The position numbers were made by a program, and so were the translations under genes. Below the pieces are notes generated by a model that saw nothing but the letters and a program-made list of their open reading frames with translations, was not told where the DNA came from and ran no database searches. Below, piece by piece: positions 1,617-8,027 of a DNA stretch of 28,334 bases. The stretch covers positions 1,990,204 through 2,018,537 of the forward strand of contig CP070644.1 in assembly GCA_020354155.1 (NCBI GenBank), given 5' to 3'. Position 1 is the first letter of the stretch. Every line of letters starts with the position of its first letter. The DNA is from Nitrospiraceae bacterium. GTDB lineage: Bacteria > Nitrospirota > Thermodesulfovibrionia > UBA6902.

Positions 1617-1632
1617 ATCAAGATGCGTGCCA
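1617..1632 (-). promoter_or_regulatory. Degenerate sigma54 promoter of glnK1-amt1
   Basis: TGGCACGCATCTTGAT: perfect -24 box and correct spacing, but GA instead of GC at -12. Confidence 0.6.
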
Positions 1633-1671
1633 CAGAAAAAACCTTATTTTACGAGAGGGATGGATGCGGGA

Positions 1672-1710
1672 AACCCTACAAAATTGTTATAACTTCAATT
1701 TTGTAGGGTT
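1672..1710. promoter_or_regulatory. Paired upstream activator-like site forming a perfect 15-bp inverted repeat
   Basis: AACCCTACAAAATTG-N9-CAATTTTGTAGGGTT. Contains ACAAAATTGT (1678-1687) and TCAATTTTGT (1695-1704), similar to the sites at 3350 and 6326. Confidence 0.6.
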
Positions 1711-1769
1711 AAACGTTTTCAAAGATCAGTAACAAACCGAAGGTATCTATAAATTACTGAAGAGTACTT

Positions 1770-3092
1770 CTACAGATTGTACCCTGCTTCTTCATGGTCG
1801 CTGATATCCAGACCCTGTACTTCGTCTTTATCCTCAGCACGGAGACCTATCGTCATATCTATTAACTTGAGCGATGTGAAAGATACTGCACTGCTCCATG
1901 CCAGGGTCAGCAATATGCTCTTAATCTGTGCACATATCTGTGCTCCAACACCTGCTGCCTCTATCCCGGCTCCACCCATGAATTCAGCTGCACAGAGCCC
2001 TGTCAATGTTGCACCGATCATGCCGCCTACTCCATGCACGCCAAACACATCAAGGCTGTCATCATAGCCCAGGGTCCGCTTCATGGAAGTAGCTGAAAAA
2101 TAGCATAGTGATCCTGAAAGAAATCCTATAAGGAGCGCTCCCATTGGCCCTGCTGTTCCAGATGCCGGTGTTATTGCGACCAGGCCGGCCACTGCTCCTG
2201 TTGCGATACCAACAGCTGTTGGTTTGCCTGAACGGAGCCATTCTACAAGCATCCAGCTCAATGCGGCTGTTGCCGTTGAGATCTGGGTAACAAGCATTGC
2301 CATTCCGGCAGTTCCGTCAGCAGCAAGCTCACTGCCGGCATTAAATCCGAACCACCCGACCCAGAGCATTCCTGTTCCGATAAGGACAAAGGGGACATTA
2401 TGGGGAAGCATGGCAGCCTCGCCAAACCCCTTGCGTTTACCCACAAGCAGGCAGGCAACAAGGGCAGCTATACCTGCATTAACATGAACTACTGTCCCGC
2501 CGGCAAAATCAAGGACACCCCAATTCACAAAAAGAGCTCCCTCACCTCCCCACGCCATATGGCAGATGGGAAGATAGGAAAGAGTAAACCATATTGTCAC
2601 AAAAAGCATTACAGCGCTGAATTTCATTCTTTCTGCAAAGGCACCTACCATAAGCGCCGGGGTGATGATTGCAAAGGTCATCTGGAATATCACAAATACC
2701 GTCTCGGGAATTGTGCCTGAAACACTGTCAACCCCAACCCCGTTGAGAAAGACCTTGCTCAACCCTCCGAAGAGCGAATGGAAGTTGAAGGTCCCCGGTA
2801 CCATCCCTGTTCCGTCGAAGGCAATGCTGTACCCATAGATGACCCACAGGATAGACATGAGACAGGTGATGGCAAAGCACTGGACAAAGATGGAGAGCAC
2901 GTTCTTTGACCGCACCAGACCGCCATAAAAGAGCGAGAGCCCCGGTATGGTCATGAACAGCACGAGTGCTGTTGCAACGATCATCCAGGCGGTATCGCCG
3001 GTGTTGATTGTTCCTGCCTCTTCCGCAAAAGACTTGATAGGCAGGGCCAGTATACCGAGGAAGATAGCTGAAATAAGATTCTTAAATTTCAT
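1770..3092 (-). CDS. amtB: Ammonium transporter, AmtB/Mep type (amt2)
   Basis: 440 aa with an N-terminal signal-like segment. Motifs: FMTIPGLSLFYGG, DFAGGTVVH and DDSLDVFGVHG (twin His), GWFGFN. SD AAGGGGG lies within the end of the upstream HTH ORF. Confidence 0.97.
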   Translation of the reverse strand: MKFKNLISAIFLGILALPIKSFAEEAGTINTGDTAWMIVATALVLFMTIPGLSLFYGGLVRSKNVLSIFVQCFAITCLMSILWVIYGYSIAFDGTGMVPGTFNFHSLFGGLSKVFLNGVGVDSVSGTIPETVFVIFQMTFAIITPALMVGAFAERMKFSAVMLFVTIWFTLSYLPICHMAWGGEGALFVNWGVLDFAGGTVVHVNAGIAALVACLLVGKRKGFGEAAMLPHNVPFVLIGTGMLWVGWFGFNAGSELAADGTAGMAMLVTQISTATAALSWMLVEWLRSGKPTAVGIATGAVAGLVAITPASGTAGPMGALLIGFLSGSLCYFSATSMKRTLGYDDSLDVFGVHGVGGMIGATLTGLCAAEFMGGAGIEAAGVGAQICAQIKSILLTLAWSSAVSFTSLKLIDMTIGLRAEDKDEVQGLDISDHEEAGYNL

Positions 3093-3096
3093 TGCC

Positions 3097-3279
3097 TTAA
3101 TAACCCCCTTTTCTGATTTCTATTCCGTATTTTTTTATCTTGTATCCGATTACTCTTTCAGTAATGCCCAGTTTCTTGGCAGCCTGAGCCATGATATAAC
3201 TGCATTCATCGAGTGCTTTTTTTATGGCATCTTTTTCATATGCCTCTATTCTGCTTTTTAAAGAAATCATGATAATCAT
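3097..3279 (-). CDS. Stand-alone Fis/NifA-type helix-turn-helix microprotein (HTH1); alternative start 3270
   Basis: IEAYEKDAIKKALDEC...AQAAKKLGITERVIGYKIKKYGI resembles the C-terminal DNA-binding domain of sigma54 activators. By hand alignment, 29/57 residues are identical to the 6009-6233 paralogue. Confidence 0.8.
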   Translation of the reverse strand: MIIMISLKSRIEAYEKDAIKKALDECSYIMAQAAKKLGITERVIGYKIKKYGIEIRKGGY

Positions 3280-3288
3280 GCGAATAAT

Positions 3289-3304
3289 AGCGAGAACTAT
3301 GCCA
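3289..3304 (-). promoter_or_regulatory. sigma54 promoter of HTH1-amt2
   Basis: TGGCATAGTTCTCGCT: GG and GC at the canonical -24/-12 spacing. Confidence 0.75.
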
Positions 3305-3349
3305 GATCGAAAGGCCTTGTAATATAAAGAAAGTGCTAAGGCTATAATT

Positions 3350-3380
3350 ACAAAATTGTTATTTATTAAGACAAATTTGT
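3350..3380. promoter_or_regulatory. Paired palindromic upstream activator-like site
   Basis: ACAAAATTGT-N11-ACAAATTTGT. Confidence 0.65.
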
Positions 3381-6233: not shown

Positions 6234-6244
6234 GGAATGACTAT

Positions 6245-6260
6245 TGCGAAAACCATGCCA
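6245..6260 (-). promoter_or_regulatory. sigma54 promoter of HTH2-porin-amt3-glnK2
   Basis: TGGCATGGTTTTCGCA, canonical spacing. Confidence 0.8.
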
Positions 6261-6325
6261 AGATGTAAGCTCTTGAAAATAATGAAAAGATATTTCAGGA
6301 TAACGACTTTAATGTAGTTTAATTA

Positions 6326-6354
6326 ACAATTTTGTTATTTAAAGACAAATTTGT
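6326..6354. promoter_or_regulatory. Paired palindromic upstream activator-like site
   Basis: ACAATTTTGT-N9-ACAAATTTGT. Confidence 0.65.
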
Positions 6355-6385
6355 AGGTAATGGAGGCGGATAAAAAACAGGAGTA

Positions 6386-7879
6386 TCAGGAAAAAAGCTG
6401 CCTTTGGTCCTGCCGTAACTGAGTAAGATTTTCTTTAGTGAGCTTGAAAGAGTTTTTAAAAAGTCTTTGCATCACTGCAGCCAGCTGCCGAAACTTGTAG
6501 GCTTCATGGTGTGAGTCACCTCTCTGTTCAGACTCTCGCCAGCTTTTCTCGTCGGAAATACGCAGTTCAAGAGCAAGGGTGTGCTGCTCTGTTTTTTTAT
6601 CTATCTCCTTTCTTTTTTTATATACAGGTGTACCAGGGATAATTATCTCCCCGTTGCTGGTCAGGCGTTGAATCGGAACCGAATAATTTATCTTGCACTG
6701 GAACTTTTTGTGTTCCAGAGCGGAATGAGGATTGTTTTGCGTATTTATACTGAGAGCCATAAAAAAAGCTTCCGTGTTTCTCGTTAAGGTGTCCGCATCA
6801 GGTGCATAGACTTCCCCTTCACTCTGGGAAAGGCTGATCATGAGATTTCGTACTGCCTCGTTCATTTCTTCAGGGCTTTTGAACAGAGTTTGCGTGATAG
6901 AGGGTGATATGGTATTTTCCTGCAGGATAACACCTCTTTTTTGCAAGGCGTGAAAGAGCTTGAGCGTATCATGAATGTTCCTTAAAATAAAAGTAATTGC
7001 AAGCATGTCCCTGATAGTATGGGCTTCTCCCTCTACATTTTTTCCCAGTTTTGTAAACATACTTTCAGGACTTTTGAGTCGTGCCTTGATATTCACTATA
7101 TCCACATCAACCCCGTCACCACTTTTGAATTCGAGACCGTTTTTGCTGTCATTGAATTTCACTGACTCTTTGAGTTTGTGAAAAAACGTAGCAACCTTAA
7201 CGAATGCTCTTTGTGCAGGAACGGTGTCAGGCAGGTGCCCTGGATTTTCCCAGTCGTAATTATACAGATTATCCAGCCCCTGCCCCTGCATTTCCAGGTG
7301 CAGCCCCAATTGGGCATAATCATTTACGTCCTGATTGTCTTCCTCGATAGACTTGATCAGATGTGCAATTTTAAGGAGGGAACATGCCATGTGCTGCCAC
7401 TCCGGTGAAATGTTCATGCTTCTTCCTTTGTATCCGTCAAAGACATGGGGAAATTTTTTTGATGATGCAAGAAGAAATATATGCCTCGGGTCTTCATGAA
7501 CTAACGCTTTGAAATGTCTATCATTTAGTACTGTCTCAATCGTATCGATGGCATTCAGGCAGGAATCGTATAGACCGGCCAGATCAGAGCGTAGGGTGCC
7601 AAGTTCTCGTAGATGTTTCTTTATGTAAGGAAATAAGTATCGGAAGGAATAACGGTATGCTTTTCTTATGTAATCGAGGGCGCGATTCTTTTCGCAATCC
7701 TCCAGCTCAATTCCCCTGATCGTATCAAATCCACGGTTTCCCATCATTTGAGTGGCCTGCTTGATTGCTGAATTATAAGATTCAGCTTTCAACAGAAGGT
7801 ACGGTGCCATTTCCTCTCGATCAAGGATAGAACCGAAAATTTCGTGGTGTAGTTCCTGATGTAATGTTCTTTCCTTCAT
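6386..7879 (-). CDS. Divergent RelA/SpoT-synthetase-like nucleotidyltransferase (resembles TIGR04552/TIGR04562-type proteins)
   Basis: 497 aa with RSH-like motifs in order: R267-L-K269-SPE-S273-MFT-K277, IR-D291-MLAIT, N383-PHS, E438-LRISD, GDSH-H458-EA-Y461-K462. DPRHIFLLAS and WQHMACSLLKIAH recall the TIGR04552/04562 families (from memory, not searched). Confidence 0.7.
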   Translation of the reverse strand: MKERTLHQELHHEIFGSILDREEMAPYLLLKAESYNSAIKQATQMMGNRGFDTIRGIELEDCEKNRALDYIRKAYRYSFRYLFPYIKKHLRELGTLRSDLAGLYDSCLNAIDTIETVLNDRHFKALVHEDPRHIFLLASSKKFPHVFDGYKGRSMNISPEWQHMACSLLKIAHLIKSIEEDNQDVNDYAQLGLHLEMQGQGLDNLYNYDWENPGHLPDTVPAQRAFVKVATFFHKLKESVKFNDSKNGLEFKSGDGVDVDIVNIKARLKSPESMFTKLGKNVEGEAHTIRDMLAITFILRNIHDTLKLFHALQKRGVILQENTISPSITQTLFKSPEEMNEAVRNLMISLSQSEGEVYAPDADTLTRNTEAFFMALSINTQNNPHSALEHKKFQCKINYSVPIQRLTSNGEIIIPGTPVYKKRKEIDKKTEQHTLALELRISDEKSWRESEQRGDSHHEAYKFRQLAAVMQRLFKNSFKLTKENLTQLRQDQRQLFS

Positions 7880-7922
7880 AAACGTTCTCTCACTATTTTG
7901 CTGTATTAATGATAAATGAATT

Positions 7923-7938
7923 TGCGAAAACCATGCCA
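7923..7938 (-). promoter_or_regulatory. sigma54 promoter of the RSH-like gene
   Basis: TGGCATGGTTTTCGCA; the 17-mer at 7922-7938 is identical to 6244-6260. Confidence 0.8.
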
Positions 7939-8004
7939 GCCCTGTAACTCTCTGATAAGAAATGAAGTCATTTCAGGAAAACTCACAATAGAGTCGTAGC
8001 TGCT

Positions 8005-8027
8005 ACAATATGGTACTCTAAATTTGT
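8005..8027. promoter_or_regulatory. Degenerate paired upstream site
   Basis: ACAATATGGT and CTAAATTTGT lie at about the same distance from -24 as the 6326 site. Confidence 0.35.

Follow-up and report, generated by a model that had tools for sequence, protein, structure and literature searches.

The closest described counterpart of the element studied here is the predicted nitrogen regulon of Desulfovibrionales, assigned to DVU1949, a single-component enhancer-binding protein (EBP) (Kazakov et al. 2015, BMC Genomics 16:919, PMC4641369). Sites of the TTACA-N4-TGTAA type, including GTTACATTTTTGTAAT and TAGACAAAAATGTTAC (Additional file 4 of PMC4641369), precede the sigma-54 promoters of amt-glnB-glnD, glnA and glutamate-synthase (gltS) operons, and the DNA-binding domain (DBD) of DVU1949 contains LTPRQMGYRIRQW / GWIQHKAARELGLTPRQMGYRIRQW (PMC4641369). 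The Desulfovibrio regulon was itself predicted computationally, with autoregulation as a clue for the assignment, and the nif genes of D. vulgaris were predicted to be under a separate AnfA/VnfA-like regulator, DVUA0143 (PMC4641369). Here we describe a palindromic box of the same type, arrayed upstream of sigma-54 promoters in a 28,334-nucleotide stretch of a Nitrospiraceae bacterium genome (Thermodesulfovibrionia, Nitrospirota; GCA_020354155.1, contig CP070644.1, positions 1,990,204 to 2,018,537), hereafter the window.

A related site has been characterized for regulators of alternative nitrogenases. AnfA of R. capsulatus binds two TAC-N6-GTA palindromes, as demonstrated by electrophoretic mobility shift assays and promoter mutants, and full activity requires both of them (Demtroeder et al. 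2020, PMC7294313). The VnfA sites of A. vinelandii read GTAC-N6-GTAC, and AnfA and VnfA carry an N-terminal Cys motif (PMC7294313). For NifA sites in Thermodesulfovibrionia or Nitrospirae we found nothing in the literature.

Judged by its conservation, the pattern in the window is real and functional, and since sites of this type had been predicted in Desulfovibrio by 2015, it adds a further example of a known, mostly predicted kind rather than a new mechanism. For Thermodesulfovibrionia, a class of largely uncultured sediment Nitrospirota, the pattern defines a cis-regulatory code of nitrogen control made up of the motif, its positions, an IHF-like element and sigma-54 promoters with an unusual -12 element. 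It would also link the amt, glnK, glnA and glutamate synthase genes, and the nifH of diazotrophs, to a single NifA-family activator.

A 12-bp box in fixed slots upstream of sigma-54 promoters

An earlier note on the window had described paired 10-bp palindromes, ACAAWWTTGT, upstream of four sigma-54 promoters (P1 to P4; Table 1). We located all of these boxes again, with no mismatch at 1678, 3350, 3371, 6326 and 6345, one mismatch at 1695 and 8005, and two at 8018 (CTAAATTTGT), and the distances that the note gave from the first box to the -24 T (46, 46, 66 and 67 nucleotides (nt)) were exact. The conserved unit is longer than that box and consists of a 12-bp palindrome, TACAWWWWTGTA (TACA-N4-TGTA, which is equivalent to TAC-N6-GTA).

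To count this unit in other Thermodesulfovibrionia, we drew genes for small helix-turn-helix (HTH) proteins from 60 relatives and a species-genome collection, and scored matches to TACAWWWWTGTA with at most two mismatches upstream of the 84 unique sigma-54 promoters preceding these genes. Every one of the 84 promoters had at least one box and 76 had at least two, compared with 14.7 and 1.5, respectively, in shuffles. We recorded the position of each box as a slot, defined as the number of nucleotides from the T of the -24 TGG to the 5' T of the box. Slots in the relatives were sharply fixed at 57-58, 75-77, 87-90 and 96-98 nt; overall, the boxes lie about 56-58, 75-78, 88-90 and 95-97 nt upstream of the -24 TGG, with box centres at ~52, 71 and 84-92 nt. 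Neighbouring boxes in the relatives are mostly spaced by 18-19 nt (range 17-21), with 13-14 nt to the third box.

The window promoters fill these slots in different combinations: 56 with 73 (P1) or 77 (P2); 76 and 95 together with a degenerate box in 56 (P3); and 77 with a weak box in 90 (P4). The earlier note had sorted the four promoters into two helically phased distance classes. Because a third box of P3 (6305-6316) sits in the proximal slot, P3 is not a separate class, and the two classes give way to one slot system with differing occupancy, the steps of which are not whole helical turns.

In the relatives' alignment, conservation of the A, C, A and T, G, T positions was 0.9-1.0 in either half of each of the two boxes. 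As both half-sites are equally conserved, the unit is the box and not a dyad formed between boxes. We rejected several sites of the latter kind. TGT-N10-ACA, attractive at the nifH genes of some relatives, was discarded since neighbouring boxes are 17 to 21 apart, with a mode of 18-19, and the outer half-sites match the inner ones in conservation; the TGT-Nx-ACA distances between neighbouring boxes are N7, N11, N9 and N3 in the window and x = 7-11 in the relatives, with a mode of 8-9. NtcA (GTA-N8-TAC) and TnrA/GlnR (TGTNA-N7-TNACA) sites each need a fixed spacing of 20 or 21, which is not conserved. The only conserved upstream columns were those of the boxes, the IHF-like element and the promoter.

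Single boxes with at most one mismatch were not above chance in the window (10 seen, 5.7 expected). Exact ACAAWWTTGT occurs 17 times in the 2.46-Mb genome, and five of these copies lie inside the 28-kb window (binomial P = 1.1e-6). Thirteen box pairs (at most two mismatches in total) were found genome-wide, and the only ones beside a sigma-54 promoter were those of the window and a pair at genome positions 945053/945070, which also lies 46 nt from the -24 T of its promoter (P5, genome position 945007).

P1 to P4 all fit TGGCAY-N5-T(T/C)G(C/A)W, and the genome contains rpoN. GG is present at -24 throughout, and the -12 element has GC in P2, P3 and P4 but GA in P1. The same GA replaces the -12 GC in P5 and in several relatives' promoters, where the -12 element is mostly T(G/A/C)GC(T/A) (for example TGGCT, TAGCT or TCGCT) and the textbook TTGCW is rare. 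The location of the promoter is likewise conserved in the relatives. The upstream regions of P1 and P5 (window 1572-1760 versus the genome 945007 region) are 71% identical and those of P3 and P4 (window 6260-6370 versus 7938-8050) 67% identical, with shuffles reaching a maximum of 60-61%. These regions are thus paralogous, the promoters having been duplicated along with their genes, so the four window promoters are not four independent cases. Independent support comes from P2, from the promoter P6 described below and from other genera.

In 51 of the 84 relatives' promoters, the IHF-like element (WATCAANNNNTTR, at most one mismatch) has its start precisely 18 nt upstream of the TGG T, and in 57 it falls within slots 17-19, compared with 4.3 in shuffles. 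In the source genome it is found at P3, P4 and P6, and not at P1, P2 or P5. The boxes are only ~50-90 nt away from the -24 element, and a sharp bend would account for their fixed slots.

The boxed promoters precede nitrogen-assimilation genes

We scanned the full source genome with a position weight matrix (PWM) trained on the relatives only. Of the resulting 34 matches, 10 occupy slots upstream of six sigma-54 promoters, compared with an expectation of 0.03. P6 has an eleventh box in slot 57; its score is under the PWM cut-off, and we identified it directly in the sequence. All six boxed promoters (P1 to P6) precede nitrogen genes. P5 precedes glnK/PII-amt-GATase-glnA, and P6 (T at genome position 2278344) precedes a split glutamate synthase (a 369-amino-acid (aa) Met-Cys protein; Glu_synthase + Fer4; GXGXG + GltD-like). 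Pfam returned no family for the 369-aa product of the first gene of the P6 operon, which its N-terminal Met-Cys and its neighbours suggest to be the amidotransferase part of the synthase.

The nifH promoters of diazotrophic relatives (17-19 of 61 genomes have nifH) are boxed too, with the same slot positions. nifH was found neither in the source genome (78% completeness) nor in three others of its genus, one of which is 95% complete. The earlier note had taken the boxes for upstream sites of a sigma-54 nitrogen activator, which was right in kind, and the PWM test came out as it had predicted. Of the promoters that it expected such a scan to return, glnA appeared in this genome and nif in the form of the relatives' nifH, and no urt promoter was found in the boxed regulon by the PWM scan.

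Directly upstream of the P5 boxes lies a 180-aa open reading frame (ORF; L002 9127-9669, genome ~945126-945668) whose match to the ammonium-transporter family is confined to the C-terminal third; it could be a truncated amt.

Table 1. Promoters, boxes, IHF-like elements and small HTH genes of the window, with the regulon targets. Positions are those of the window; all genes and promoters in 1-7938 are on the minus strand.
Feature	Position	Strand	Description
P1 sigma-54 promoter	1617-1632	minus	TGGCAC-N5-TTGAT; T of TGG at 1632; serves PII-like gene 1266-1571 and amt 2-1237
P1 proximal box	1677-1688		AACAATTTTGTA on minus strand; slot 56; PWM score 16.0
P1 distal box	1694-1705		TACAAAATTGAA; slot 73; PWM score 13.1
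P2 sigma-54 promoter	3289-3304	minus	TGGCAT-N5-TCGCT; T at 3304; serves HTH1 and amt 1770-3092
HTH1	3097-3279	minus	60 aa; stand-alone Fis-type HTH (HTH_8); first cistron after P2
P2 proximal box	3349-3360		slot 56; motif search and PWM
P2 distal box	3370-3381		slot 77; PWM score 18.1
HTH2	6009-6233	minus	74 aa; stand-alone HTH_8; first cistron after P3
P3 sigma-54 promoter	6245-6260	minus	TGGCAT-N5-TCGCA; T at 6260; serves HTH2, porin-like gene, amt and PII (6233 down to 3510)
P3 IHF-like element	6266-6278	minus	TTTCAAGAGCTTA; 1 mismatch to WATCAANNNNTTR; slot 18
P3 degenerate proximal box	6305-6316		TACATTAAAGTC; 2 mismatches; slot 56; absent from the earlier note
P3 middle box	6325-6336		slot 76
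P3 distal box	6344-6355		slot 95; PWM score 18.3
P4 sigma-54 promoter	7923-7938	minus	TGGCAT-N5-TCGCA; T at 7938; serves 497-aa gene 6386-7879
P4 IHF-like element	7945-7957	minus	TATCAGAGAGTTA; 1 mismatch; slot 19
P4 box	8004-8015		TACCATATTGTA; slot 77; PWM score 13.1
P4 degenerate box	8017-8028		3 mismatches to the 12-mer; slot 90, matching the relatives' third slot; weak alone
Targets in genome			three glnK/PII-amt units; porin-like gene; RelA/SpoT-like gene; glnK-amt-GATase-glnA; split glutamate synthase

A NifA-family protein is the candidate activator

The sequence evidence makes it likely that the boxes are the enhancer sites of a nitrogen-assimilation sigma-54 regulon, and the probable binder is a single NifA-family EBP encoded outside the window (genome 894271-895815). 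This 515-aa protein combines GAF, sigma-54 AAA+ and Fis-type HTH (HTH_8) domains and has Walker A, GAFTGA and the Sigma54_activat domain. Among the ~18 EBPs encoded by the genome, it is the one that passes the NifA equivalog model TIGR01817 (570.8 bits, cut-off 528.85), and none reaches the NtrC equivalog cut-off (best 470.5 versus 558.6 bits). It has no Cys in its first 57 residues, and hence no N-terminal Cys motif of the AnfA/VnfA kind, and it is also without the interdomain Cys motif.

The recognition helix region of the EBP is ITPRQIGYKIKKYGI, with the TPRQ-GY-I helix ITPRQIGYKIKKY. Of the 25 HTH_8 domains in the genome, only that of the NifA-family EBP resembles HTH1 and HTH2, the small proteins encoded first after P2 and P3, with 46-47% identity over 59 aa, and no other domain exceeds 34%. 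Among solved structures, the nearest domain is 2m8g (70 aa, labelled 'transcriptional regulator'), which we take to be the domain of the Aquifex NifA-like homolog 2, followed by the NifA chain 9qq6_C (MTPRQIAYRI). A homolog search returned Nitrospirota proteins only, either named NifA or unnamed.

Orthologs of the EBP were present in 56 of 61 relatives, with a family identity of 75-81%, and in several of these the gene lies 3-20 kb from boxed promoters. Five diazotrophic relatives have exactly one EBP each at the NifA cut-off, and in these genomes the nifH and HTH-amt promoters are both boxed. A natural negative control points the same way: G053, a 100% complete genome of the class, encodes neither the EBP nor a small HTH, and the sigma-54 promoter of its glnB-glnA operon is without boxes. 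As the activator persists in genomes without nitrogenase, 'nif-specific NifA' annotations there are better read as general nitrogen regulators. Alongside the conserved protein of 510-520 aa, some diazotrophic relatives (G007:C34, G015:C7 and G016:C69/C72) encode a divergent NifA paralog of 550-591 aa (48-49% identity), immediately adjacent to nifH.

In the mechanism that we propose, nitrogen limitation would release the GAF domain of the EBP, and the released protein would assemble on an array of two or three boxes in fixed slots. Its flexibly tethered HTH domains would read the ACA-N4-TGT units, two or three of which may nucleate the active ring. At some promoters an IHF-type bend just upstream of the promoter could aid the EBP, which would then contact the sigma-54 holoenzyme such that the promoter opens.

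Evidence against the assignment and alternative binders

The assignment of the EBP to the boxes is a prediction from indirect evidence, and several observations weigh against it. First, boxes are not conserved upstream of the EBP gene: 14 of 29 orthologous loci had any box, mostly a distant one, and box-like palindromes near the EBP start occur only in the source genome and two relatives. In the source genome, a perfect 16-bp palindrome, CAAACAAATTTGTTTG, lies with a sigma-70-like TTGCAT-N18-TATAGT 35-70 nt before the likely EBP start (L001 7840-7885, genome ~895840-895885); the 29 orthologous loci instead share a sigma-70-like TTGATA...TAGTAT. We therefore dropped autoregulation as evidence, and the clue used by Kazakov et al. 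is missing here. Second, G053 is the only genome that serves as a negative control. Third, the source genome resembles a metagenome-assembled genome at 78% completeness, and two EBP genes are cut by contig ends. Finally, the recognition helices of HTH1 and HTH2 begin differently from that of the EBP, with two changed positions (TERM versus TPRQ), and these proteins could be the real or additional box binders.

Separately, contig C9 of G053 (L154) carries, behind a glnA-PII pair, an ORF of 330 aa whose N-terminus is HTH-like; it may encode a different nitrogen regulator.

In one alternative, the boxes are operators of the small HTH proteins, which as dimers would repress or tune their own operons while the activator binds elsewhere or acts from solution. 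A small-HTH gene directly follows the boxed promoter in 59 of 61 relatives, a small dimer would suit a 12-bp palindrome, and the HTH family is near-invariant in LGITERMIGYKIKKYGI, with its helix, ITER(V/M)I(G/A)YKI(K/R)KY(G/E)I in HTH1 and HTH2 versus ITPRQIGYKIKKYGI in the EBP, differing at the two positions named above, which possibly contact bases. However, boxed promoters without an HTH gene exist (P1, P4, P5 and P6, and nifH of the relatives), the same motif has been assigned to DVU1949, and sigma-54 promoters need an enhancer-bound activator, with no conserved columns upstream other than those of the boxes, the IHF-like element and the promoter. We consider such operators unlikely.

We regard as very unlikely, too, that the boxes are bound by a response-regulator-type (NtrC-like) EBP, either the product of a truncated gene at genome positions 1989322-1990104 or one missing from the assembly. 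NtrC is the classical activator of amt and glnA, the genome is incomplete, and the truncated gene, which encodes a fragment of a response-regulator-type sigma-54 activator cut by the contig end, stands just before the window. This adjacency is unproven, as it spans a 100-N scaffold gap; no EBP of the genome reaches the NtrC cut-off, the remaining HTH_8 domains fall at or below the 34% identity to HTH1 and HTH2 given above, and the boxes co-occur with the NifA-family EBP in near-complete relatives. The enteric NtrC site, TGCACC-N5-GGTGCA, was not seen in the four upstream regions; the earlier note had compared the boxes with this site and the NifA TGT-N10-ACA alone. Lastly, although single boxes at one mismatch are within chance in the window and P1/P5 and P3/P4 are duplicated promoter regions, the conservation of position and sequence across many genera (84 promoters) against diverging flanks, and the genome-wide clustering of exact boxes (P about 1e-6), leave a negligible chance that the boxes are functionless AT-rich palindromes or leftovers of promoter duplication.

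Relation to known regulators

The EBP-bound regulon that we favour most resembles that of DVU1949, with which it shares the palindrome core, sigma-54 targets (amt/glnB, glnA and glutamate synthase) and a single-component EBP with a TPRQ-GY-I helix (~45% identity over 42 aa, counted by eye). It differs in its phylum, Nitrospirota; in the boxes that also precede nifH in diazotrophic relatives; in the absence of conserved EBP autoregulation; and in the fixed slots, the IHF-like element and the putative DBD-only paralogs behind the boxes. The earlier note had called the site lineage-specific. This does not hold, as the same core was predicted for the DVU1949 regulon of Desulfovibrionales, and TAC-N6-GTA is the demonstrated AnfA site.

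With AnfA and VnfA the system has in common 12-bp dyads with TAC...GTA (0.9-1.0 conserved here, with two to three dyads per promoter), together with sigma-54 and a GAF-AAA+-HTH activator. Those proteins, which we compared by description, control alternative nitrogenase genes only, whereas the genes here serve general nitrogen assimilation, the N6 has a strong A/T bias (A-WWWW-T) and the EBP is without their N-terminal Cys motif. Extending the Desulfovibrio prediction to a second phylum and linking it to the AnfA site makes a shared recognition mode in the NifA-like branch testable.

Classical NifA is alike in protein family by hidden Markov model, in a near-identical helix (that of 9qq6_C), in TGT/ACA triplets, in sigma-54 and in nifH as a target. 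Its upstream activating sequence, TGT-N10-ACA, is different: here the half-sites are reversed and closer together (ACA-N4-TGT), and there is no fixed 10. The earlier note had set the motif apart from NifA, which stands for the site and not for the protein, as the only plausible binder passes the NifA equivalog model. Neither is the role that of a nif-specific NifA, the boxed targets in this genome being assimilation genes, with no nifH found. In NorR-type arrays, a GAF-AAA+-HTH activator binds several adjacent short inverted repeats that nucleate the active oligomer; these arrays differ from the one described here in their GT-N7-AC motif, nitric oxide signal and regulon.

Small HTH proteins encoded behind the boxes

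Against NCBIfam, HTH1 and HTH2 both match best to the last 45 residues of the NifA model. In the relatives, small-HTH genes begin 23-43 nt downstream of the T of their -24 TGG, and here the distances are 25 (3279/3304) and 27 (6233/6260). Given the usual transcription start, these cistrons would be leaderless or nearly so.

It is possible, though we hold this only tentatively, that HTH1 and HTH2 are DBD-only paralogs of the activator that act on the same boxes, or pair with its DBD, as a feedback brake or a priming step on amt operons. If true, this would be a microprotein layer of control not described for EBPs. The likeness of their recognition helix to that of the activator and the conservation of the arrangement throughout the class fit this reading. 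A predicted heterodimer of the HTH microprotein and the EBP domain scored 0.33, with the best control at 0.00; three runs shared at least 87% of contacts, and the pLDDT (predicted local distance difference test) of the partner was at least 74. Of 80 solved complexes, 58 reached the mark used for such predictions, as did 2 of 110 mismatched pairs; at scores of 0.60 or less it was reached by only 7 of the 80 and by both of the passing mismatches. The pass may be explained by likeness to solved Fis/NtrC-type domain dimers, and the prediction lends weak support to pairing between microprotein and activator.

Further observations

The 497-aa product of the gene behind P4 gave weak matches to RelA/SpoT and TIGR04552-like proteins. 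Among metagenomes, the stretch was found only in those of sediment DNA; one RNA run, in the form of contigs, has a 0.06 share.

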